DNA of 64,000 nucleotides from Candidatus Woesearchaeota archaeon (lineage in GTDB: Archaea; Nanobdellota; Nanobdellia; SCGC-AAA011-G17; UBA489). The notes below the pieces were generated by a model. That model saw nothing but the letters and a program-made list of their open reading frames with translations. It ran no database searches and was not told the DNA's origin. Where the stretch lies: NCBI GenBank assembly GCA_016845225.1, contig JAERTB010000016.1, positions 13,923-77,922 on the forward strand. The letters are read 5' to 3'. Of the stretch, positions 32,490 to 63,635 are shown piece after piece (the stretch's first letter is position 1; the number at the start of each line of letters is the position of its first letter). The position numbers and the translations under genes were made by a program.

Positions 32490-33350
32490 TTATTTTTTTG
32501 ATTTTAATAATTTACCAAGAAAACCTTTTTTCTTCTTAGGTTCTTTAATTGTTTTTTCTTTTTCTACTTTTTTTTTACTTGTTGCTTTCTTAGTAGTCTT
32601 CTTCGCAGTTTTCTTAGTAGTCTTCTTCGCAGCTTTCTTAGTAGTCTTCTTCGCAGCTTTCTTAGTAGTCTTCTTCGCAGCTTTCTTCACAACTTTCCCT
32701 TCCTTAAGAGCTTCTTTTTCTTTTTCTGCTTTCTTTAATGCTTTAGCTTCTGCTCTAGCTGCATCCTTTTCTTCCTTTTCCTTAGCAAGTGCCTTTTCTA
32801 GTTTTTTAGATTCTGCAGCTTTGTGTTTAGTTAGTAATTCGCTTGAAATTTTGTAATGTTCTCTATCTTTTTTTAATATTCTATTAAGTTCTCTTCTTCT
32901 CTTAGCAGCATCCTGTTCTTCTAGAATTTCTCCACAAGATTCACAAAAAAACTGGGATTCTAATGCCTCTTCTTCACTTACTTTAGTTCTACAAGGTTTA
33001 CAAACATAAAGCCTAGTATCTTCAATATGTTCTAGTTCATATTCATTTTTTTCTATACTTTTCTTCTTCATATCTTCGATAAGGCCAACTGCTTTTGGAA
33101 CATTAAATGCCCAAAAATAAATGTACCATCCTTTAACCGCATCCTTTTTTCTTGTAAATGAGACCAAATTATATTCTTGAAGCCTATAAATCATATTTCT
33201 AACTGCATTTACAGAAATTCCTAATTTTTCAGCTATTTTGAACTCAGAAACATTCTTTCTAGCTTTAAGCAATACATGTAACAATTTAACAGTATCAGAA
33301 CCAGCTATATTTTTAACAAGATCAATAATTATTTCTTCAGGAACTTTCAT
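32490..33350 (-). CDS. tfe: Transcription factor E alpha (TFE) with extended Lys-rich C-terminal tail
   Basis: An N-terminal winged helix is followed by a zinc ribbon CKPCRTKVSEEEALESQFFCESCG. The tail carries a K/E/A-rich region and (AAKKTTKK)x4. Confidence 0.7.
   Translation of the reverse strand: MKVPEEIIIDLVKNIAGSDTVKLLHVLLKARKNVSEFKIAEKLGISVNAVRNMIYRLQEYNLVSFTRKKDAVKGWYIYFWAFNVPKAVGLIEDMKKKSIEKNEYELEHIEDTRLYVCKPCRTKVSEEEALESQFFCESCGEILEEQDAAKRRRELNRILKKDREHYKISSELLTKHKAAESKKLEKALAKEKEEKDAARAEAKALKKAEKEKEALKEGKVVKKAAKKTTKKAAKKTTKKAAKKTTKKTAKKTTKKATSKKKVEKEKTIKEPKKKKGFLGKLLKSKK
32585..32680. repeat. 4 x 24-nt perfect or near-perfect tandem repeat inside the tfe tail
   Basis: The unit cttTCTTAGTAGTCTTCTTCGCAG repeats at 32585-32608, 32609-32632, 32633-32656 and 32657-32680. 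It encodes AAKKTTKK repeats on the minus strand. Confidence 0.7.
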
Positions 33351-52838: not shown

Positions 52839-53558
52839 TTGAAGCATACATTTGAAATGATAATAGATAGTCATACGCATATCGGATTTGAAGACAAGTA
52901 CCAAAATCAAGGTCCTAAAGAGCTAATAAGGCTAATGGATAGGGCAGGAATAGATAAATCTGTGATTTTTCCATTTGGACCAGTTTTTTCAAAAAATCAA
53001 TCCTATCATTCAGAAAACATCAAAATTAGCAGATATTCCAATAATCCCCGGTTCATTACATTCGGAAGAGTAAATCAATTAGCATCGGATTCTCTTGAAG
53101 AAGTTGATAGAATAAATGATTTAAAATTTAAAGGAATAAAAATTCATACTGATGCAGTTCCTTTAAACCCATATACTGATTTAGTAAAAAAGTTAAATGA
53201 GTATCACTTACCAATATTAATACATACAGGAAACAATAAAAATGCAGATGTTGAGAATTTAAAACATCTAAAATATGAAGGAAATATTATAATTGGCCAT
53301 GGAGGAAAAGATAATGTTTCAAGCGCAATTGAATTAGTAAATTCAAGAAATAATTTTTACATTGAAACATCACTGCTTTCACTAAGCAGAACAAAAAAAC
53401 TAATCAGAGAAGTTAAAGATAAATCAAAAATACTCTTTGGTTCAGATGCACCTTATGATTTACCAGAATTAGAAGTTAAAAAAATAATGCATGCATGTGA
53501 TTATGACAGAGGATTAGTAAGGGACATTTTGGGAAAAAATTTGGAGAAAATATTATGA
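52839..53558 (+). CDS. Amidohydrolase-2-family (TIM-barrel metal-dependent hydrolase) protein
   Basis: It has N-terminal IIDSHTHIG, downstream IKIHTD, HTGN and GHGG metal-ligand-like motifs, and a 4-nt overlap with the next gene. Confidence 0.6.
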   Translation: MKHTFEMIIDSHTHIGFEDKYQNQGPKELIRLMDRAGIDKSVIFPFGPVFSKNQSYHSENIKISRYSNNPRFITFGRVNQLASDSLEEVDRINDLKFKGIKIHTDAVPLNPYTDLVKKLNEYHLPILIHTGNNKNADVENLKHLKYEGNIIIGHGGKDNVSSAIELVNSRNNFYIETSLLSLSRTKKLIREVKDKSKILFGSDAPYDLPELEVKKIMHACDYDRGLVRDILGKNLEKIL

Positions 53559-54646
53559 ACACAAAAACAAAATACAATACCTTAATATTGACAAGGGGAA
53601 GAGACATGACTCCAGATTCTACAGAATTAGCATTAGCATTTGAAGCAACAAATAGAAATCATAAAGTTTCTTTTCAAAAACCTGAAAATTTTTACGTAAA
53701 AGATGGAAAATTATTTGGAATTACTCATAGGCCAAATGCAGAGTCAATAGACTCCTACGAGGCATTTGGACATTATGTAGAAAATGAGTCTTTCATGAAA
53801 CAAGAAAACATTCCTCTAGAAGATTTTGATATCATTTTCTCAAGAGTAGCATATAGAAATCCAGATGAAAAAAGAGAATTTGAAAATATGTGCATTTACT
53901 TGTCTTCATTACAATCATTAAATCCAAGAGTTACAATGGTAAATTCTCCATTGGGAATGGTCATGGCTGGTGCAAAAATTTACGAAACACTTAACCTAAA
54001 AACATACATGCCAGAAACACACATTACTAAAGATTCCAAACGTCTAGAAAAATTAATGAAAGACGCAGCATTAGAAAAACAAGGAATTATTGGAAAACCA
54101 ATTGACGGCATGGGTGGGAGTGGCGTTATTGAAATTCCTCCAAGTGGTTACAGAGGATTAAGAACGCTAGCAGAAGTGTTAGTTGAACCTTTAGAAAGTA
54201 CTTCTTCAATTCCTGCAATCATTCAATCTAAGTTGGAAGGAGTAGATCGTAGAATTTTAATTATGGGTGAAGAAATTCTTGGCGCATACAAAAGGGTGCC
54301 AGTGGAAGAAGAAATAAGGGCAAATATTCATTTAGGTGGAACAGTTCAACCTTATGAACTACAAGACATTGATAGAGAGATAGTAAGTAACGTAGCAGAG
54401 ACAATAAAGAGAGACGGATTATATTTCTGCGGATTAGATATCATGGGGCCAGAGGAAAATGGAACAATTGAAAATACCCGGATGTTAGAATTAAATGTGA
54501 GGTGTCCAGGTTCAATTAAAAGTTTGGAATCATTAGCAGAATCTTATCATGAAAAGGCAGAAATAAGGAATGCTGCAGCAAATAAGATTGTTAGATATGC
54601 AGAAGATTTACATGAAGACAAGCTATCTTCATTAGATCAAGAATAA
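53555..54646 (+). CDS. ATP-grasp ligase of the glutathione-synthetase (GshB)/RimK type
   Basis: It shows blockwise similarity to the bacterial GshB C-terminal half (KPIDGMGGSGVIEI; RILIMGEEILGAYKRVP...NIHLGGT; GLDIMG...ELNVRCPGS). The N-terminal pre-ATP-grasp domain is GshB_N-like. Confidence 0.65.
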   Translation: MNTKTKYNTLILTRGRDMTPDSTELALAFEATNRNHKVSFQKPENFYVKDGKLFGITHRPNAESIDSYEAFGHYVENESFMKQENIPLEDFDIIFSRVAYRNPDEKREFENMCIYLSSLQSLNPRVTMVNSPLGMVMAGAKIYETLNLKTYMPETHITKDSKRLEKLMKDAALEKQGIIGKPIDGMGGSGVIEIPPSGYRGLRTLAEVLVEPLESTSSIPAIIQSKLEGVDRRILIMGEEILGAYKRVPVEEEIRANIHLGGTVQPYELQDIDREIVSNVAETIKRDGLYFCGLDIMGPEENGTIENTRMLELNVRCPGSIKSLESLAESYHEKAEIRNAAANKIVRYAEDLHEDKLSSLDQE

Positions 54647-54687: not shown

Positions 54688-54773
54688 GTGGGTGTCCCAT
54701 AGTCTGGTCAATTGGGCAGGACTTAAGATCCTGTGACTTAGTGTCTACGAAGGTTCGAATCCTTCCACCCACA
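54688..54773 (+). tRNA. tRNA-Leu (anticodon UAA), long variable arm
   Basis: It has acceptor GTGGGTG/CACCCAC, anticodon stem CAGGA/TCCTG with loop CTTAAGA, a 15-nt variable arm TGACTTAGTGTCTAC, T-arm GAAGG-TTCGAAT-CCTTC and discriminator A. The length is 86 nt. Confidence 0.8.
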
Positions 54774-54777
54774 GTTT

Positions 54778-55116
54778 TTACCTATTATCTCCATTACCCT
54801 TAACCTTATTTCTTTTTACTCTGCTTTTTATTTTTTCTAAATTGATTTTAGCAACTTCGTCCATTTCAAAATTCAGTTCACTACAAAGATTAGCCAAATA
54901 CCACAAAACATCGCCCATCTCTTTTCCAATCGCATCTCTAGTATCTGGGCTAACCTTGCCCTCACAGTCTCTAAAGATTTTTTTTACCTTCTCAGCAACT
55001 TCTCCAGATTCTCCACAAAGGCCCATCGTAGGGTATGTTAAATTCTTCCCAACATTTGGATAACTAGCAGTTTTTCTAGCAAGTTTTTGATATTTGTTTA
55101 AATGCATAAATATCAC
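54778..55116 (-). CDS. MazG-like nucleotide pyrophosphohydrolase
   Basis: It has the MazG/NTP-PPase EExGE...DxLWY signature (GLCGESGEVAEKV; EMGDVLWYLANL). The length is 112 aa. Confidence 0.75.
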   Translation of the reverse strand: MIFMHLNKYQKLARKTASYPNVGKNLTYPTMGLCGESGEVAEKVKKIFRDCEGKVSPDTRDAIGKEMGDVLWYLANLCSELNFEMDEVAKINLEKIKSRVKRNKVKGNGDNR

Positions 55117-55208
55117 TTAATTATTCGATTAATAAGAATTTATCAAACTCAAAATAGATAATTTTCCCCAATACTTTTAAAAAAGAAAATCTTCATGAAT
55201 AAACCAGC

Positions 55209-55280
55209 GCCACCGTAGCTCAGTGGTAGAGCACTACATTGGTAATGTAGAGGTCGCGAGTTCAAGTCTCGTCGGTGGCT
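55209..55280 (+). tRNA. tRNA-Thr (anticodon GGU)
   Basis: It has acceptor GCCACCG/CGGTGGC, D-arm GCTC-AGTGGTA-GAGC, anticodon stem CTACA/TGTAG with loop TTGGTAA, and T-arm GCGAG-TTCAAGT-CTCGT. The length is 72 nt. Confidence 0.8.
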
Positions 55281-55364: not shown

Positions 55365-55469
55365 ATGAAGCAGCCAAAAAAGTCAAAAATCAAGATGGAC
55401 AAGTATATCAAAAAAACGCATGATAACTGGTCTGTATTAGAAGATTTTGGAATATATTTTTTGCAGTAA
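55365..55469 (+). CDS. Mini-ORF (34 aa) with perfect Shine-Dalgarno
   Basis: AAGGAGG lies 7 nt upstream of ATG. The ORF reads MKQPKKSKIKMDKYIKKTHDNWSVLEDFGIYFLQ and is located just 3' of tRNA-Thr. Confidence 0.25.
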   Translation: MKQPKKSKIKMDKYIKKTHDNWSVLEDFGIYFLQ

Positions 55470-55558: not shown

Positions 55559-55852
55559 ATGAGCAAAGATCTAAAAGACATAATTTCAGAAGAAAATTAC
55601 GGCGATCCAAATACGCACAAAAAGGGGAGATATTCTAGAACTAATTTACCTAGGCCTTCAAATTACACAGAAGAATTAGAATTTCAAGCCGATTTACAAG
55701 AGGGAATTACTGAATTTCTAAAAGATATTGATTATGATCCATTAACAGACGATGTACAATATCAAGACATCTTATCTCCAGCTGATGAATTAGACATTTT
55801 AGAAGGAAAAATTTATCATGTAGATATCGGCAGAAAAGATACTAATTACTAA
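55559..55852 (+). CDS. Hypothetical acidic protein
   Basis: A 97-aa ORF with no recognisable domain. Confidence 0.35.
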   Translation: MSKDLKDIISEENYGDPNTHKKGRYSRTNLPRPSNYTEELEFQADLQEGITEFLKDIDYDPLTDDVQYQDILSPADELDILEGKIYHVDIGRKDTNY

Positions 55853-55863
55853 TTTGAATTACC

Positions 55864-56451
55864 TCAAAGGTAATTCTTTCTTTCCATTCTTTCTCTTATT
55901 TGTTTAATAGTTACACAAACATAAGTGCGAGACTTATCCAAAACATCTGCAATATCTATATTTTTATAACCTAAAAGTTTCATATCTAATGTCAATAGTT
56001 TAGAAGGATTTAAACCATAAACCAAATCGTCTAAAGTTTCTTTAGCACACATAACATCAAATCCTGAGGGTGTTTTAAAATCTTCCAATACATAGGCTGA
56101 TTGTTCTGGGTTAAATTCTTCAGAATTTATGTTTGTAGAGTAAGTTTGAGGTTTATTTTCTAATCTCATGTATTTAGTCAAAACATCTCTGATTCCAAAA
56201 TCAATATGCATTCCTGCAAATTTTCTAAATGTTAGTCCTCTATCCTCTTCATATTTTCTTGCAGCTTTAAGCAATCCATCAATTGCCCCATCATAAAATT
56301 CTTCATCAGAAATTTTATAGAATCTGCGACCATATCTTTGAGAAATAGTTTCTGCCAAATTTAATAAATAATCTTTATCATTTTCAATTATTTCTTTTTC
56401 ATCACTAGTAAGGACCCTATTGCCTATTCTTTCCATATACATTTTAAACAA
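55864..56451 (-). CDS. Sigma-70-family-like protein (region 2 plus region 4 HTH), 195 aa
   Basis: DGAIDGLLKAARKYEEDRGLTFRKFAGMHIDFGIRDVL aligns by eye with sigma region 2.2-2.4 (EGNIGLMKAVEKFD..RG.KFSTYA..WI...I). The C-terminal LTLDMKLLGYKNIDIADVLDKSRTYVCVTIKQIRERM fits a region-4-like HTH pattern. Confidence 0.5.
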   Translation of the reverse strand: MFKMYMERIGNRVLTSDEKEIIENDKDYLLNLAETISQRYGRRFYKISDEEFYDGAIDGLLKAARKYEEDRGLTFRKFAGMHIDFGIRDVLTKYMRLENKPQTYSTNINSEEFNPEQSAYVLEDFKTPSGFDVMCAKETLDDLVYGLNPSKLLTLDMKLLGYKNIDIADVLDKSRTYVCVTIKQIRERMERKNYL

Positions 56452-56515
56452 TCGTCCTTAATATCCTTATTGGTTTTACAGATACTCTTAAAAATCCAAA
56501 TTTCAAAATAAAACT

Positions 56516-57004
56516 ATGGAAAATTTCAAAGAAAAATACAAAATATTGCGAGAAAAATACAATTTGCCATCATATGAAGAGTTAGATAAGAATTTTGAAA
56601 TATTAAACTCAAAACCGGTAGTAGAGGTTTCTTTTCCGTTAGCAGTGGTAAGGAGAAGAATGTGTGAAAAACTATCCTGGATATCTTCAGGAATTCAAAA
56701 TATTATTCAACCAAATCCTTCTTCCTTAGTATGTATAGAGGAGTCCTCTTTTTTTACAAAAGAAGAAAAGAAAGAAAGATTAATCAAATTATTAAAAGAA
56801 TTAATGTATTTGATAAGGAAATCAATAGATTTAGATATAGATAATTCAGAAGAAAAAGATGCAGAATACATAAGTGAAACATTCAACAAATGGAATGAAT
56901 TAAAACATAAAATAAAAGAATTTAGTAAAAAGATGAAAGATGGTTGGAAAAAGGAAGTAAAAGTTTCTAAAAAACCAAAAACTAATCACAATTACTTAGG
57001 TTAG
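56516..57004 (+). CDS. Hypothetical protein
   Basis: A 162-aa K/E-rich ORF with no recognisable domain. Confidence 0.35.
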   Translation: MENFKEKYKILREKYNLPSYEELDKNFEILNSKPVVEVSFPLAVVRRRMCEKLSWISSGIQNIIQPNPSSLVCIEESSFFTKEEKKERLIKLLKELMYLIRKSIDLDIDNSEEKDAEYISETFNKWNELKHKIKEFSKKMKDGWKKEVKVSKKPKTNHNYLG

Positions 57005-57041: not shown

Positions 57042-57641
57042 ATGAAAAAGGGGCAGGTATATCTTTTAGCAGTAATTATTATGGGATTTCTAATCTACAC
57101 AATGTTACTTCCAGTTAATTTTCTAAAAACTTCAGAAATAGATGACGATTTTCAAGAAATTTCAAAGAATTATCAATTAGAAAGTGCAAAACTTCTAAAT
57201 GAATTATTAAACACTCAAAACTTAAATCAAGATTTTGTTGAAGGAAGGTTTCTTAATTTCACTGTAGCATTTACATCTTACTCCAAATCAAAAAATCCTA
57301 ACTTCGGATTAGTTTATGCATTTCCTTTCAACAATAAAGTATTTTTAGGAAATTACGCAGATTCTCCATTAAATTATACTCAAACAGATCAAATACAAGG
57401 ATGTTTGTCAGATGTAACTGCAGCAATATCTTTATTGGGTATAGATGTATCCTCTCCAGACATAGATGTGGGCACCTATACCGATTGCATGACTTCAATA
57501 ACCTACCCTTTAAATGACAAGTTAGATTTAATCTTGGACAACTCAGAATATTCATTCACACTTTCAGATTCAACTTCAAACTTAATAATAATTAACAAAG
57601 AAAGCATTGAAGGAGATGTTAAAATCTTCATAAGTGAATAA
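57042..57641 (+). CDS. Class III signal peptide (pilin-like) protein, 199 aa
   Basis: The N-terminus MKKGQ|VYLLAVIIMGFLIYTMLLPV is prepilin-like. Confidence 0.55.
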   Translation: MKKGQVYLLAVIIMGFLIYTMLLPVNFLKTSEIDDDFQEISKNYQLESAKLLNELLNTQNLNQDFVEGRFLNFTVAFTSYSKSKNPNFGLVYAFPFNNKVFLGNYADSPLNYTQTDQIQGCLSDVTAAISLLGIDVSSPDIDVGTYTDCMTSITYPLNDKLDLILDNSEYSFTLSDSTSNLIIINKESIEGDVKIFISE

Positions 57642-58119
57642 AAAAACTAATAAACAAAATAAAACACTAAATAACATGCAAAAAAACAAAAGAGGAGTTT
57701 CACCAGCAATAAGTTGGATATTGTTAATAGGATTTACAATGGCTTTAGCAGGTTTTTCAATGACTTGGATGAGAGAAACAGCATCATCAACTTCTGAAAA
57801 AATGGTAGATAATGTGGGTTCTGATTTAGAATGTGGAGATGTTTCAATAAATGCATACGAAGAAACTTCAACAACAACAGGTTGTTCAAAAGTAAACATC
57901 ATCAACAGAGGTTTTTTCACAGTCACTGGTGTAAAAGTTAGATCCGGAAGTGGATTAGAAGAAATTACTCAAGAAATAAAACCAACACAAGAAGCATTAA
58001 TAAATCCAACAATAAGTAGTTTTTTACCAAATAATGAAATAGGAATCATTCCACAAATATCTTATAAAGATTCAAATCTAGTTTGTATAAATAAAGAGGT
58101 TAGAATAAAATGCACATAA
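57634..58119 (+). CDS. Archaeal type IV pilin (Pilin_N-type N-terminus)
   Basis: QKNKRG|VSPAISWILLIGFTMALAGFSMTW matches the archaeal pilin/flagellin N-terminal domain. The true start is probably the internal MQKNKRG at about 57676. Confidence 0.65.
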   Translation: MNKKTNKQNKTLNNMQKNKRGVSPAISWILLIGFTMALAGFSMTWMRETASSTSEKMVDNVGSDLECGDVSINAYEETSTTTGCSKVNIINRGFFTVTGVKVRSGSGLEEITQEIKPTQEALINPTISSFLPNNEIGIIPQISYKDSNLVCINKEVRIKCT

Positions 58120-58568
58120 CTAAAAAGGGAGTTTCACCATTAATCGCAACAAGTATTCTAATTGGTTTCGCAGTAGTTATTACTACTATAGTAATCCTTT
58201 TTGGAGGAGAACTAATTGAAGAGATTCAGCAAAAACAAGGGAAAACATTAACAAAAACAATTCAGTGCGATAACATGCATTTCAAAGTTACAGATATTAT
58301 TAACGATGATATTTGGTTATTGAATGATGGAACTACAGATATTCACGCATTTATGTTAAGATACAAAGGAGATGATGCAGAATATGTAAATTCCCATCTA
58401 AAAACCACAATCCCTGCAGGAGGATCAGGAAAAATAACTGCTGCAACTCCTCCAGGAATAGGAAAATTAAACACATTAACAATTTTTGCTAAAAGTGCGG
58501 CAGGGCCAGAAGGAAGCATTATTTGGGGCACATGCGGGTCTACAGAAACATCTGTAAACTTTCCATAA
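58110..58568 (+). CDS. Archaeal type IV pilin
   Basis: The N-terminus MHITKKG|VSPLIATSILIGFAVVITTIV is pilin-type. Confidence 0.7.
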   Translation: MHITKKGVSPLIATSILIGFAVVITTIVILFGGELIEEIQQKQGKTLTKTIQCDNMHFKVTDIINDDIWLLNDGTTDIHAFMLRYKGDDAEYVNSHLKTTIPAGGSGKITAATPPGIGKLNTLTIFAKSAAGPEGSIIWGTCGSTETSVNFP

Positions 58569-58619
58569 CAGTAAACTTTAATAATAACAAATAGTAAAAA
58601 TTAAACGAGGTAATTAACA

Positions 58620-59084
58620 ATGATTAAAAACAAAAGAGGAATTTCACCATTAATCGCAACAGTTCTATTAATTGGATTCGCAGTAGCTCTAGCAGCTGTA
58701 GTAATGACATGGGGCCTAGACTTCATTAAATCAACAGCAGACACAACAGAGCAACAAACTGAAAACACTTTAATTTGTGCAACTGAACTTTCTTTTGCAA
58801 TATCTAACGTAGATCTTATCACAGGAACAGTTACAGTAGATAATCGTGGACAAGTAGATATTAACAGTTTAGCATTTAGGGTTTATAATGCATCAGGCGT
58901 AACAACTAATGTAACTACAGAAACAATTGCAAAGTTTGAAGTTAAAACTTTAACTCCTACAATTACTGGTTCAAATTTAATAGGTTCAGACGTAACAAAG
59001 GTTGAAGCAATTGCAACAGTTCCAGGAAGTTCTGGACAAGGTGACATAATCTGTTCCCAAAATTTGCAATCATATCAAATTTAA
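58620..59084 (+). CDS. Archaeal type IV pilin
   Basis: The N-terminus MIKNKRG|ISPLIATVLLIGFAVALAAVVMTWG is pilin-type. It is a paralogue of the 58110 gene. Confidence 0.7.
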   Translation: MIKNKRGISPLIATVLLIGFAVALAAVVMTWGLDFIKSTADTTEQQTENTLICATELSFAISNVDLITGTVTVDNRGQVDINSLAFRVYNASGVTTNVTTETIAKFEVKTLTPTITGSNLIGSDVTKVEAIATVPGSSGQGDIICSQNLQSYQI

Positions 59085-59126
59085 GTTTAATGGAGTAATC
59101 ACTCCATTTTTTCTTTTTATTTTAAC

Positions 59127-59663
59127 ATGACTATTAATTCCAAAGAAAAGCAAGGCCAAATATGGATTTCTGCAATTCTATTTTTATCAATTGGAGTTAT
59201 GATTATTGTATTAATACTTTCAGCAATTATGCCAGTAGTAGATAGATTAGCAGATAGAAACACTCTTTCCTCAACAAAGAATCTTTTACTAGAAATGGAT
59301 GAAACAATTAAAACAGTTGCAAGAGAAGGGCCAGGCAGTCAAAGAAACTTAGATATCACTCTAAACAAAGGAGAATTATACTTCCAAAATGATACCTATC
59401 AAATTAAATGGATCATGGAAACAGAGTCAGAAATAATGGAAAAAGGAATAGATATTCCTGAAGGAAACATAGTGCAACATCTAAATGCTACAAGAGTGGA
59501 TCAAATATCAAACCTAATGCTTTGGATAACCTCAAATAAATACAACACCTCAATCAATTCACAATTTTCCAATCCTTTTACTGGCAAACACACATTAACA
59601 GTAAAACATACAGGAATAATACACCCTAACGACAATCCATTAATTGAATTAAAAATAACTTAA
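59127..59663 (+). CDS. Pilin-like / minor pilin protein
   Basis: The N-terminus KEKQGQ|IWISAILFLSIGVMIIVLILSAIMPV is prepilin-like. Confidence 0.5.
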   Translation: MTINSKEKQGQIWISAILFLSIGVMIIVLILSAIMPVVDRLADRNTLSSTKNLLLEMDETIKTVAREGPGSQRNLDITLNKGELYFQNDTYQIKWIMETESEIMEKGIDIPEGNIVQHLNATRVDQISNLMLWITSNKYNTSINSQFSNPFTGKHTLTVKHTGIIHPNDNPLIELKIT

Positions 59664-59719
59664 TGAGAAACTATTAAAAAAGCCAAAACACAGTATATAA
59701 TTATCAAAAATAGAGGTGT

Positions 59720-61309
59720 ATGGTGGATAATTCAACTAAAAGAGGGTCTTCTGAATCAGTGCCTATTCCGGCAGCAGATTTTGGAATAGAAAAAGCAACA
59801 GAGATACCATCCTTGCCAGATTTCTCAGAAAAAAGAAAAATAGATATCAAATATCCGCTAATCAAACCATATGCTTATGCACATATTCATTGGGATGAAG
59901 ATCAAAAAGAAGTGATTTATGAATTAAAAGAGCCACCATTAAATCTAAAGGAAAAACATGTTCTCAAAGAATTAGAAAAAGGATTAGAAGAATTAATCAA
60001 TATTAGTTTCATTAATATTAAAGATAAAGAAGCAGTAATTTCTTACTTAGAAAAGAATGCAAGAGTTCTATTAGCAGAGTTAGGATTAAAACCGCCAAAA
60101 GAAGTATTCCTAAAATTAATGTATTATATTTATAGGGACTTTGTTGGTTTAAACAGAATTGAAGCATTAATGAATGACTACCATATAGAAGATATTGAAT
60201 GTAATGGTTCAAATTTAGAATTGTATATAGTTCATAGAAAGTATAGAAATCTAAAAACAAATATCACTTTCAAATCCAATGATGAATTAACTTCTTTCGT
60301 TGAAAAACTTTCTCAAAAATGTGGAAAGTATATTTCATATGCTAGTCCAATCTTAGATGGAAGATTACCAGATAAAAGCAGAGTTAATGCAACCTATACG
60401 CAAGATATTTCTTCAAGAGGTCCAACCTTCACAATTCGTAAATTTACTAGTGAGCCTTGGAGTCCAATCAAACTAATTGATGTAAAAACAGCAAGTCCAG
60501 AACTTTTAGCATATTTGTGGATGTTAATAGAGTATGAATCAAACATCGTAGTAATTGGGGGAACAGGTTCAGGTAAAACTTCATTTTTAAACAGTATAGC
60601 CTTCTTTATACCTCCTCAATCAAGAATTGTTTCAATAGAAGATACACATGAATTAAATCTACTACACACTAACTGGTTACCTTCAGTTTCTCGTGAAGCC
60701 ACAGGGGTAGGGACAGAAGGAAAATTCGGAGAAGTTTCATTATTTACCTTACTAAAAGCAAGTTTTAGACAAAGGCCAGACTACGTTATCGTGGGAGAGA
60801 TTAGAGGTCAAGAAGCATTTGTTTTATTCCAGGGAGCTGCATCGGGACATCCCACAATGTGTACTATGCACGCAGAAGATGTTGAAACAATGATCAGAAG
60901 ATTAGAAACTCCTCCAATTAGTTTACCTCCATCATTAGTAGAAACCTTAGATGCAGTTTGTGTAATGACTCAAACAAAAGTAAATGGTAAGGAAGTTAGA
61001 AGATTAAAAAGTGTAACTGAAGTATTGAAAGTTGGTCAAAAATTAGGAACTGTAGAAAAAAATGTTCCATTTATTTGGGATCCAAAAACAGATAAATTCT
61101 TTTTCAAAAAACAAAGTGCATTATTCCAAAAATTACAAAAAGAATTTGGAATGGACGAACAAACAATACAAAAAGAATTTCAAAGAAGAACTACTTTACT
61201 TTGGACACTATATAAAAAAGGAATTTCAGGATATTCAGAAGTACAAAAAATAATCAGTGCTTATTCAAAATCTCCAGAAGAAGTCCTAAGAAGATTTAAC
61301 ATTCAATAA
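59720..61309 (+). CDS. Type IV pilus/archaellum-type assembly ATPase (FlaI/TadA/VirB11 superfamily)
   Basis: Walker A VVIGGTGSGKTSFLNS, Walker B DYVIVGEIRG and His-box TMHA are present, along with an N-terminal FlaI-like domain. The length is 529 aa. Confidence 0.85.
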   Translation: MVDNSTKRGSSESVPIPAADFGIEKATEIPSLPDFSEKRKIDIKYPLIKPYAYAHIHWDEDQKEVIYELKEPPLNLKEKHVLKELEKGLEELINISFINIKDKEAVISYLEKNARVLLAELGLKPPKEVFLKLMYYIYRDFVGLNRIEALMNDYHIEDIECNGSNLELYIVHRKYRNLKTNITFKSNDELTSFVEKLSQKCGKYISYASPILDGRLPDKSRVNATYTQDISSRGPTFTIRKFTSEPWSPIKLIDVKTASPELLAYLWMLIEYESNIVVIGGTGSGKTSFLNSIAFFIPPQSRIVSIEDTHELNLLHTNWLPSVSREATGVGTEGKFGEVSLFTLLKASFRQRPDYVIVGEIRGQEAFVLFQGAASGHPTMCTMHAEDVETMIRRLETPPISLPPSLVETLDAVCVMTQTKVNGKEVRRLKSVTEVLKVGQKLGTVEKNVPFIWDPKTDKFFFKKQSALFQKLQKEFGMDEQTIQKEFQRRTTLLWTLYKKGISGYSEVQKIISAYSKSPEEVLRRFNIQ

Positions 61310-61314
61310 TCAAG

Positions 61315-61497
61315 ATGTCTTTAGAATCAATAAAACAAAATGCTCAAAGCATAATCTCTGCAAATGAAAAATACTCTCAATTAGTTTTAAAGCCAACACA
61401 TGATAAAAAAGAAGCAGAAAAATTAAAAAAATACATCTTAACACTATCTAACACAATTTCTAAACAGTTAGGGGAAGTAAAGAAAGATGTCGATTAG
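61315..61497 (+). CDS. Small coiled-coil protein between ATPase and platform genes
   Basis: A 60-aa ORF that overlaps the next start by 11 nt. It has no recognisable domain. Confidence 0.3.
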   Translation: MSLESIKQNAQSIISANEKYSQLVLKPTHDKKEAEKLKKYILTLSNTISKQLGEVKKDVD

Positions 61498-62773
61498 CGA
61501 TAATGCTCAAGAAATTATTTCTTTAGTTTCCCAATTAGAAAAAGAACTTGTTCCTAAAAAGAAGCACGAACTTATAGAAAAGATAGAAAAAGCGAATCAA
61601 CGAATTCAATCAGAAGTTTCTTCAGAATCAAGACCATTATTATATACAGGAGTAATGGATAAACTTCCAGCAAAATCAACTGCTCCAGAACCTTCTCCAC
61701 CTACACCAGAAAAGCCACATAAGCAACCTGGACCAATTCAAACTAAACAAATTAAGAAAAAGAAAACATCACCAAAAACAAAAAAGAAATTGATGGAAGA
61801 GTTAAAGATTAATCAAGAAGATTTAGAAAAAGCATATCCTAAAAGAAAAACAAAGAGTTCAAAAAAAAGTGACTTCACAGTTTATGTTACAAGTCCTTTT
61901 GGAAAACTTTCAAATCAATTCTTCGGAAACTATGTTTCAAATCTATTCGATAAAAAGAAGCCATTCATCAGAAATTTAGCAGATTCAGTAAGAATATCTG
62001 GAATGCCTATTCTATCAAGAACTTATATCAGTATGATGTATTTCTCTTCATTAGTTGGATCAATGCTTGCAATGTTAGTAGCATTGGTAGTTTCGTATCT
62101 TGCAGGGCTAAGCATTACAATTATGGCAGTATCAATGATTATCTCTCTAATTAGTGTAGGACTTTTAGTATTTCTTGGAATGTATGCATATCCTGCATCG
62201 GAGGCATCAGCAAAATCTAGGGCAATAGACAATGACTTACCTTTCGCAACAATTCACATGGCGGCAGTAGCAGGTTCAGGTGCACAACCCATAGCAATGT
62301 TTAGGTTGTTATTAAAATCTGGAGAATATAAAGGATTAGAAAGCGAAATAAAAAAAATCGTAAACTTAGTTAATCTATTTGGCTATGACCTTTCAACAGC
62401 ATTAAAGAACGTATCATTAAGAACTCCCTCAAGAAGATTTAAGGAGTTATTAACTGGAATTGCATCAACAATTGAATCCGGAGGAAGTCTAAAATCTTAT
62501 CTTAAAGGCGTTGCAGATGAATCGATGACAACCTACAGATTAGAACGAAAGAAGTACGTTGAATCTTTAGCAACATATTCAGACATCTACACAGGAGTTT
62601 TAATCGCAGCACCATTATTATTCATGGTAGCACTTACAATTATAAACATGGTCGGAGGACAAGTTGGAGGATTAGAGGTATCTACTTTAGCATGGGGCGG
62701 AACATTATTGGTTTTACCTATTGTAAATATATTATTTTACATTTTCCTAAACATTTCACAACCTGGAGAATAA
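61487..62773 (+). CDS. Pilus platform membrane protein, TadB/FlaJ-like (one T2SSF domain) with Lys/Pro-rich N-terminal extension
   Basis: After a roughly 170-aa hydrophilic N-terminus (PEPSPPTPEKPHKQPGP; K-rich) come 2 TM, a cytoplasmic T2SSF-like domain (AIDNDLPFATIHMAAVAGSGAQPIAMF), then 2 TM. Confidence 0.65.
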   Translation: MSISDNAQEIISLVSQLEKELVPKKKHELIEKIEKANQRIQSEVSSESRPLLYTGVMDKLPAKSTAPEPSPPTPEKPHKQPGPIQTKQIKKKKTSPKTKKKLMEELKINQEDLEKAYPKRKTKSSKKSDFTVYVTSPFGKLSNQFFGNYVSNLFDKKKPFIRNLADSVRISGMPILSRTYISMMYFSSLVGSMLAMLVALVVSYLAGLSITIMAVSMIISLISVGLLVFLGMYAYPASEASAKSRAIDNDLPFATIHMAAVAGSGAQPIAMFRLLLKSGEYKGLESEIKKIVNLVNLFGYDLSTALKNVSLRTPSRRFKELLTGIASTIESGGSLKSYLKGVADESMTTYRLERKKYVESLATYSDIYTGVLIAAPLLFMVALTIINMVGGQVGGLEVSTLAWGGTLLVLPIVNILFYIFLNISQPGE

Positions 62774-62774
62774 A

Positions 62775-63635
62775 ATGTCAAGATTAAAATTTAAACCAGT
62801 TTATACATTGAGCATATTAGCAGGAGTAATGGTAATTCTTCTTGCAATTAAATTCCAATTTGGAGAAAGATTTTTCTTTCCATTAATCATTTTATCCTTA
62901 GTTGTTTCATCACTTCATTTTTGGATTGATTTTTTTGCAGAACAAAATAGACAAAAATTAATCGAAGTAATGTTTTTAGAATTTATTAGAAATCTTTCAG
63001 AATCAATTAAATCAGGAATTTCTATTCCAAGATCTATTCAAAACATAGCAAAAAGAGATTATGGAGAGTTATCTCCTTACATAAAAAAATTATCTAACCA
63101 GATAGAATGGGGGATACCAACAAGAAAAGCTCTTCAAACATTTGCAGAAGATACAGAGAATAGAGTGATAATAAGGTCAATTTCATTAGTTTCTGAAGCA
63201 GAAAAATCAGGAGGAGATATTACAGACATTTTATCTTCGGTAGTTGAATCTGTAGTAAGTGTTAAACAAATAAAAGAAGAAAGAAAATCCCAAATTCATG
63301 CCCAAGTAGTTCAAGGGTACATAATCTATTACGTCTTCATTGGAATCATGTTAGTCTTAGATTTATGGCTATTTCCCCAATTAACTGGTGTTGAAACCTC
63401 TTCTTCAATTCAGGCAGGGGCAAGTGGTGTGGGTGGAATGGGATTGGCTGGAGCAGGTGGAGGCGCATTAGACATGGGCCCAATATTTCTTACATTAATA
63501 TTAATCCAAGGATTTTTTGCAGGAATAATGATTGGGAAATTTTCAGAGGGAACAATCAAAAACGGATTATTACATTCATTGATAATGATGGTTTCAGCTG
63601 CGCTGATAATTACAACATTAAAGGGAGGAATATGA
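62775..63635 (+). CDS. Pilus platform membrane protein, TadC/FlaJ-like (second T2SSF domain)
   Basis: It has 2 TM, a cytoplasmic T2SSF-like domain (SGISIPRSIQNIAKRDYGELSPYIKKLSNQIEWGIPTRKALQTF) and C-terminal TMs with a Gly-rich loop. It starts 1 nt after the previous stop. Confidence 0.65.
   Translation: MSRLKFKPVYTLSILAGVMVILLAIKFQFGERFFFPLIILSLVVSSLHFWIDFFAEQNRQKLIEVMFLEFIRNLSESIKSGISIPRSIQNIAKRDYGELSPYIKKLSNQIEWGIPTRKALQTFAEDTENRVIIRSISLVSEAEKSGGDITDILSSVVESVVSVKQIKEERKSQIHAQVVQGYIIYYVFIGIMLVLDLWLFPQLTGVETSSSIQAGASGVGGMGLAGAGGGALDMGPIFLTLILIQGFFAGIMIGKFSEGTIKNGLLHSLIMMVSAALIITTLKGGI

Follow-up and report, generated by a model that had tools for sequence, protein, structure and literature searches.

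The locus described here raises the question of what a gene resembling a bacterial sigma factor is doing in an archaeon, since sigma factors are the hallmark of transcription initiation in bacteria, and archaea rely on TBP, TFB and TFE instead. The gene lies in a 64,000-nucleotide (nt) stretch of contig JAERTB010000016.1 from a Candidatus Woesearchaeota archaeon (hereafter, the window), where an open reading frame (ORF) list placed it on the minus strand at 55864-56451, encoding 195 amino acids (aa) from a TTG codon. An initial annotation had described this ORF as sigma-70-like, with regions 2 and 4, in an otherwise archaeal locus, and had proposed horizontal acquisition, a virus or plasmid remnant, or a repurposed DNA-binding protein to account for it. 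Judged by its sequence, the ORF is real and encodes a true but very divergent sigma-70-family protein composed of sigma2, a linker and sigma4. Among the three proposals, horizontal acquisition of what is now a repurposed DNA-binding protein fits best, and we assign this explanation as a whole a probability of roughly 0.55. Its identity and history taken jointly are highly probable: a divergent sigma2-linker-sigma4 protein on a marine Woesearchaeota chromosome, with ancestry among the short sigmas of Bacillota and phages, that landed in a variable slot and was then inherited vertically under purifying selection.

Because the ATG at 56436 (M6, MERIG...) was the sole start codon kept across lineages, both in a 5' alignment of five loci and in an alignment of three proteins, the sigma-like gene most likely spans 55864..56436 on the minus strand and encodes 190 aa. 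Alternative starts lie upstream at ATG 56442 (M4, 192 aa) and TTG 56451 (195 aa); the first of these, two codons before the conserved ATG, is the one picked by gene callers in other assemblies. In 195-aa numbering, the predicted layout consists of a sigma2-like domain with regions 2.1-2.4 at residues ~16-99 (56155..56406), a low-confidence linker at residues ~100-129 (56065..56154; predicted local distance difference test score, pLDDT, 27-61 in both structure models) and a sigma4-like helix-turn-helix (HTH) domain at residues ~130-191 (55879..56064), all on the minus strand. The sigma3 domain is absent, so that sigma2 is followed by a short linker and sigma4. This linker, KPQTYSTNINSEEFN, was highly conserved in close orthologues and not kept in a lineage with 32% protein identity.

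The initial annotation had stated that a lack of significant Pfam sigma hits would speak against it, and a Pfam scan of the sigma-like protein, with Sigma70_r2 and the region 4 models included, indeed gave no match even at E<=1; the protein reaches no curated family threshold in Pfam or NCBIfam. The sigma identity is held all the same because more sensitive methods point to sigma, and it was by more sensitive profiles that the literal outcome of the Pfam check was overturned. All 13 sub-threshold NCBIfam matches were to sigma factors, and most of these alignments covered region 2. The top model, TIGR02937 (E=4.7e-5), aligned residues 40-191 with model positions 25-163 of 165 at a score of 23.1 bits, below its cut-off of 42.9, and the remaining NCBIfam models scored far under theirs. 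HMMER aligned residues 38-88 to region 2 of FliA, and a search of PDB sequences with the family profile returned FliA alone (E=0.31).

A full HMMER search with a three-sequence profile against a library of 1.84 billion protein representatives yielded 54 matches at E<=1e-3, nearly all of them 165-200 aa long; some 50 proteins in this size range aligned over nearly their full length with E-values of 1e-7 to 1e-3. The search also added a family member, P0003 (32% identity, E=2.5e-17). In an alignment of 43 sequences (A2), comprising 39 HMMER matches and four family members, Pfam Sigma70_r2 was detected in 33 sequences and region 4 models in 25-26, and TIGR02937 was matched by every sequence of a set of 37 from which family members were left out. 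Alignment of the four-member family with the profile of these 37 sigmas by hhalign gave a probability of 99.9% (E=1.3e-32) over residues 14-192, and the 43-sequence profile, family members included, matched solved sigma factors in the PDB with E-values down to 7e-30. The single PHROGs match for the sigma-like protein was 'RNA polymerase sigma factor'. The reading of the ORF as a sigma-70-like protein with regions 2 and 4 was thus borne out by TIGR02937, HMMER and hhalign. The subfamily itself is tiny: word-indexed searches found only two to three relatives, the two closest being 94% and 73% identical, and three 90%-identity clusters represent it among 5.8 billion proteins.

Structure prediction from the three-sequence family alignment was poor (pLDDT 47) and was not used. 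The model from the 43-sequence alignment reached pLDDT 81, a result that corroborates the assignment and is not independent of it, the alignment consisting mostly of true sigma factors. It contained two helical domains (~16-99 and 130-191) separated by a disordered linker, and both the sigma2 and the sigma4 three-dimensional folds were present, including the C-terminal domain with regions 4.1-4.2 and an HTH by which the sigma-70 family is recognised. The best 50 matches listed by Foldseek against the PDB were all sigma factors. Forty-four positions were invariant across the two lineages that carry the gene, clustering in the structural cores of sigma2 and sigma4, and sigma2 was the best-conserved part between them.

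The nearest relatives are short sigma2+sigma4 proteins of 165-200 aa with an identity of only 18-31%, which scored best against SigB/F/G, SigK/E, FliA and SigH-type models. One close relative (P0005) matched Clostridium and Bacillus phage genes of the 'sporulation sigma factor' type, and tblastn against phage genomes recovered only two records, both from Enterocloster phages, with the alignment spanning 90% of the protein at E=4e-4. A scan of viral contigs for members of the sigma-like family found none. 'Sporulation-like' sigma factors have been described in phages, which reprogram Bacillota hosts with this sigma lineage (Schwartz et al. 2022, PMC9429907). The short Bacillota and phage sigmas (SigH, SigF/G, SigK/E-like) resemble the protein in size and in their sigma2+sigma4 layout, and differ in that its host is an archaeon, presumably without a cognate bacterial core enzyme. 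The ancestor would accordingly have come from the pool of short sigmas typical of Bacillota and their phages. Extracytoplasmic function (ECF, group 4) sigmas, which as a rule are autoregulated and co-transcribed with a cognate anti-sigma factor, also share the layout restricted to sigma2 and sigma4; the sigma-like protein falls below the model cut-off (23.1 vs 42.9 bits) and lacks a co-transcribed anti-sigma factor, and its relatives, which score better on group 3 and SigH-type models than on specific ECF groups, are at least as similar to group 3 and SigH-type sigmas. Archaeal HTH regulators of the sigma4/LuxR/Tfx type lack sigma2, whereas the sigma-like protein has it as its best-conserved part.

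The use of this sigma lineage by phages to reprogram Bacillota (PMC9429907) also lends something to the idea that the protein acts in trans on a bacterial RNA polymerase (RNAP), for example in a bacterial partner or host of the episymbiont, and the adjoining pilus locus could mediate cell contact. We regard this as very improbable: no signal peptide or secretion signal was found in the sequence, no delivery system is evident, and known DPANN hosts, according to Castelle et al. 2021 (PMC8204110), are archaea.

The host chromosome is archaeal and belongs to a marine Woesearchaeota lineage. The tfe gene that the initial annotation had noted at 32490 was confirmed as TFE-alpha (32490-33350), and the window further contains the archaeal markers GatD, GatE, ATP-dependent DNA ligase, Nre and ABCE1/RLI together with archaeal-type pilins and PilB/PilC. 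No bacterial core RNAP genes were seen within these 64 kb. A GTDB genome scan identified one orthologous locus, at 74% identity, in the closest named relative, 'Candidatus Woesearchaeota archaeon SI072_bin118'; a metagenome scan for more family members likewise gave one locus, and homologues of the divergently oriented 162-aa gene next to the sigma-like gene were labelled Woesearchaeota or Nanoarchaeota.

The sigma-like gene is native to this chromosome, positionally conserved and under purifying selection. Its surroundings comprise a pilus operon headed by the 162-aa gene, the divergent sigma-like gene, a convergent 97-aa gene where present, a mini-ORF, tRNA-Thr, a MazG-like gene and tRNA-Leu. 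This layout was repeated in the related loci L001, L010 and L017, and also, without the 97-aa gene, in L002-L004, which form a second lineage drawn from an NCBI genome assembly and from TARA and JGI metagenome assemblies. Both junctions were shared by contigs from GTDB, NCBI, ENA marine, TARA, JGI and Logan assemblies, and GC (guanine plus cytosine) content was flat across the locus at ~0.30. As the arrangement is conserved across assemblies and lineages and GC is flat, the gene is neither the product of chimeric assembly or mis-binning nor part of a recent island. On an artefact explanation, a piece of bacterial or phage DNA would have been mis-binned or joined into a chimera here, or a low-GC ORF would resemble sigma factors by chance. 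This explanation could draw on the missing Pfam match and on the long spurious ORFs that a genome of 30% GC produces; identical junctions across these assemblies, archaeal flanks and homology far beyond chance effectively refute it, leaving it the least probable of the alternatives.

In all seven contigs (the window plus six loci), which represent two lineages, the frame of the sigma-like gene is unbroken and its length unchanged. Between the window and L001 its ratio of nonsynonymous to synonymous substitution rates (dN/dS) was 0.33, within a span of 0.03-0.44 for the twelve genes compared. Between the window and the L002-L004 lineage, protein identity was 32% for the sigma-like protein, 48% for the 162-aa protein, 45% for the pilin-like protein and 63% for MazG. 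Orthologues in the same place and orientation are down to 32% identity, so the horizontal acquisition that we infer for the sigma-like gene is old. At 22-28 nt upstream of the conserved ATG, an ATATTAA box (56458..56464, minus strand) is a candidate archaeal TATA box; a five-locus alignment showed no change in it between the window, L001 and L002-L004, even though the proteins are just 32% identical. As a TATA box, it would imply a leaderless or short-leader mRNA, and the sigma-like gene would be expressed from an archaeal TATA-type promoter. Bacterial -35/-10-like sites occurred at chance level (13 observed vs 9.4 +/- 2.7 expected).

The initial annotation had also pointed to a tRNA-flanked patch with MazG and a mini-ORF with a perfect Shine-Dalgarno sequence, which was confirmed. 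The patch runs from tRNA-Leu(TAA) (54688-54773) through the MazG-like gene (54778-55116, minus strand) to tRNA-Thr(GGT) (55209-55280), followed by the 34-aa mini-ORF (55365..55469, plus strand), which is preceded by AGGAGG. The order tRNA-Leu/MazG/tRNA-Thr (54688..55280) was also found in L001, L002, L004 and L010, and with the mini-ORF it held in every lineage in which the sigma-like gene occurs; the block is conserved backbone and does not represent island attachment sites. No integrase was found, and the PHROG and PADLOC signal at the locus was limited to 'sigma factor' and 'MazG'. An integration island or provirus was therefore rejected on the grounds of retained backbone synteny, flat GC and a lack of phage or defence matches, direct repeats not having been searched for. 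Of the explanations first proposed, the virus or plasmid remnant, if taken as a recent one, thus falls away (conserved backbone, no integrase, flat GC), while horizontal acquisition and a repurposed DNA-binding protein stand.

Sister lineages place the gene in a small variable slot. In L011, L012, L015 and L016 a homologue of the 162-aa gene heads the same pilus operon, and none of the ORFs at these loci matched the family profile or a broad sigma profile at E<=1. These sigma-less relatives retain tRNA-Thr(GGT) and the mini-ORF; both tRNAs are kept, but in L011 no MazG lies between them. The interval between mini-ORF and operon is reduced to a 78-bp spacer in L011 and holds an unrelated 125-aa ORF in L015. 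Variation is confined to the 0.6-0.9-kb slot in which the sigma-like gene lies. Since the sister lineages share the backbone without the sigma-like gene, the slot is variable and the distribution of the gene patchy. Neighbouring proteins were 45-60% identical with all lineages about equidistant, which fits one gain with subsequent losses as well as a gain at a later stage. The ancestral gene would have landed in the slot that separates tRNA-Thr and the mini-ORF from the gene heading the type IV pilus operon, and would have been inherited vertically since, under purifying selection.

A patchy gene in a variable slot might also be a slowly decaying passenger of an old bacterial or phage transfer that is functionless now. 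In keeping with this, its rate of change is high for the locus (73% vs 82-96% identity for most neighbours), the 5.8 billion proteins contain just three 90%-identity clusters of its subfamily, and it scores below all curated thresholds. The intact frames of equal length in seven contigs from two lineages, a dN/dS clearly below 1 (0.33), the 44 invariant positions and the conserved promoter box and start codon argue against decay; moreover, DPANN genomes are small and gene-poor. We consider the passenger explanation unlikely.

How the protein would act is more tentative, and we place the following mechanism somewhat short of even odds. A domesticated sigma may now serve as a sequence-specific DNA-binding regulator, and no longer as a classical sigma; the HTH of sigma4 would bind DNA, with sigma2 as a second DNA- or protein-binding module. 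Plausible targets would be the divergent promoter region of the gene itself along with the neighbouring pilus operon, or other loci. A classical sigma role is unlikely because the host has TBP/TFB/TFE and no bacterial core polymerase was seen in the available sequence.

A CTTAAAAAT box (CTTAAAAA(T/C)C; 56487..56495, plus strand), ~25 nt upstream of the ATG of the 162-aa gene, is a candidate TATA box of the pilus operon; its TTAAA core and flanking positions were invariant in 6/6 lineages aligned, three sigma-less ones included. Because the box is identical in sigma-less lineages, the promoter of the pilus operon appears to be an ordinary archaeal, sigma-independent one. A sigma-specific operator in the divergent promoter was considered and rejected, the conserved box being kept without the sigma-like gene.

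The retention of both domains could alternatively mean that the protein is an initiation or specificity factor on the archaeal RNAP, with sigma2 on the clamp coiled-coil of Rpo1N and sigma4 on upstream DNA, redirecting the polymerase or competing with TFE and Spt4/5. Both domains and their spacing are kept down to 32% identity, sigma2 is the most conserved part, and no other conserved partner was found; to our knowledge, a clamp coiled-coil is common to all multisubunit RNAPs, that of Rpo1N being the counterpart of the bacterial beta-prime clamp helices. In E. coli sigma70 numbering, the structural core is kept at G411, L412, A415, F419Y, G424, F427, Y430F and A431, whereas D, G/S and I stand in place of Q406, E407 and N409, which contact beta-prime in sigma70, and M/L and H/K in place of the melting tryptophans W433 and W434. 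These replacements count only weakly against a polymerase-bound role: contact and melting positions also differ among the closest relatives from bacteria and phages, so that the substitutions do not discriminate between the models. The gene is also dispensable in sister lineages, and we know of no precedent for a sigma on an archaeal RNAP. A role on the archaeal RNAP is improbable in our view, if slightly less so than the decaying passenger. Hybrid transcription, in which a sigma-like factor working on this polymerase would compete or cooperate with TFB and TFE and perhaps switch genes for pili and host attachment, is doubtful to the same degree as that passenger. Function is called unclear for DPANN sigma factors in the sigma-factor passage of Castelle et al. 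(PMC8204110), which leaves room for such a role.

Several observations weigh against the old acquisition and repurposing as a regulator that we favour. The pilus-operon TATA box is the same without the sigma-like gene, which indicates that the operon does not depend on it, and the gene can be done without, the sister lineages having lost or never gained it. Between the window and L001, most neighbouring genes have changed less than the sigma-like gene (82-96% vs 73% identity). An intact and best-conserved sigma2 is unneeded by a pure HTH regulator and hints at a function in protein-protein or single-stranded-DNA contacts. The putative role as regulator and its candidate targets are read from sequence; the pLDDT 81 model leans on an alignment of mostly true sigma factors; and the lack of a bacterial RNAP in the host is presumed from what is known of the group, 64 kb having been inspected.

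The initial annotation had suggested looking for an anti-sigma partner; none was conserved with the sigma-like gene at the loci compared, nor was any other neighbour gene conserved specifically with it. The 97-aa acidic protein (55559..55852, plus strand), convergent with the sigma-like gene and without a family match, is lineage-specific, being present in the window, L001 and L017 and missing from L002-L004, and was rejected as an anti-sigma partner for that reason; its dN/dS of 0.44 was the maximum of the locus. A terminator-like inverted repeat (55856..55876, no strand assigned) with a 9-bp stem, GAATTACCT...AGGTAATTC, and a following T-rich run sits between the two convergent genes and overlaps the stop codon of the sigma-like gene. 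The mini-ORF and the 162-aa gene were rejected as anti-sigma partners too, both being present without the sigma-like gene as well. The sigma-like gene has no dedicated neighbour, in agreement with the sigma-factor passage of Castelle et al. (PMC8204110), where no anti-sigma factors were reported.

The mini-ORF, which is not a dedicated partner because it occurs with or without the sigma-like gene, contains the motif YIK.THDNWSVLEDFG and has homologues at L001:10977-11171 (-), L002:1657-1767 (-), L011:4776-4922 (+) and L015:4263-4433 (+). In each of five woesearchaeal lineages, this conserved micro-protein of 34-48 aa with the consensus Y(I/M).K.(H/N)DNWSVLEDFG is encoded shortly after tRNA-Thr(GGT). 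Next to the slot of the sigma-like gene, the inter-tRNA space is another small slot of variable content: it holds the MazG-like gene in the lineages with the sigma-like gene, and in L011 (L011:4079-4679) a 74-aa ORF with CxxC and Ala/Glu-rich repeats. On the far side of tRNA-Leu, an ATP-grasp enzyme of the glutathione-synthetase/RimK type (53555-54646, plus strand; GSH-S_ATP, E=1.4e-30) looks bacterial within a reduced archaeal genome; this gene conservedly adjoins an amidohydrolase-like gene in these DPANN genomes, Pfam Amidohydro_2 having been recorded for the L011 counterpart of the latter.

The 162-aa gene (56516..57004, plus strand) is divergent from the sigma-like gene and the first of the type IV pilus operon. 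Its product belongs to no known family, with no Pfam, PHROG or PADLOC match; 14 homologue clusters (P0056-P0069) define a family of helical proteins of 158-162 aa that share H(N/H)Y(L/M)G at the C-terminus and are encoded at the head of this operon in several Woesearchaeota/Nanoarchaeota lineages, and a dN/dS of 0.11 (window vs L001) indicates strong purifying selection. In the metagenome-assembled genome represented by L013, the homologue lies among copper-oxidase and cupredoxin genes instead of in a pilus operon. The archaeal type IV pilus locus that follows (57042..63635, plus strand) is complete, with five pilin-like genes, a PilB-like ATPase (59720-61309, plus strand; T2SSE match) and two PilC-like membrane proteins (T2SSF matches), and is collinear in L001. 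The N-termini of the pilin-like proteins resemble class III signal peptides, for example MKKGQVYLLAVII and KRGISPLIATVLLIGFAV, with a weak Pilin_N match. Pilin rates were very uneven (dN/dS 0.03-0.31 vs L001), as expected if some of the pilins are surface-exposed and in host contact.

Sigma-70 genes in DPANN archaea, Woesearchaeota among them, have already been published. In their sigma-factor passage, Castelle et al. (2021, Front Microbiol, PMC8204110) describe such genes (fam00359) as 'particularly prevalent in Woesearchaeota', rule out mis-binning, report no anti-sigma factors and term the mechanism unclear. The present protein is a further, unusually divergent example of sigma homologues in this group of archaea. 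Like the fam00359 sigmas of that passage (PMC8204110), it is encoded among archaeal genes in a host with TBP/TFB/TFE-type transcription and has no anti-sigma factor nearby; it differs in being too divergent for any Pfam sigma model and in its subfamily of just three 90%-identity clusters. The position at the pilus operon and the presence or absence of the gene in its slot are not mentioned in the passage (PMC8204110). What is added here is its invisibility to Pfam, its affinity to short phage and Bacillota sigmas, a fixed place at the pilus operon, a presence/absence polymorphism and an estimate of selection.

Family-level surveys based on Pfam would overlook members of this kind. The gene offers a compact test case, combining a protein of 190 aa, a conserved promoter, a fixed position on the pilus side and sister lineages that naturally have or lack the gene. 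If selection maintains a sigma homologue in an archaeon, the protein must have either a new job or contact with a non-cognate polymerase, and either outcome bears on how far parts of the transcription machinery can be transferred between domains.

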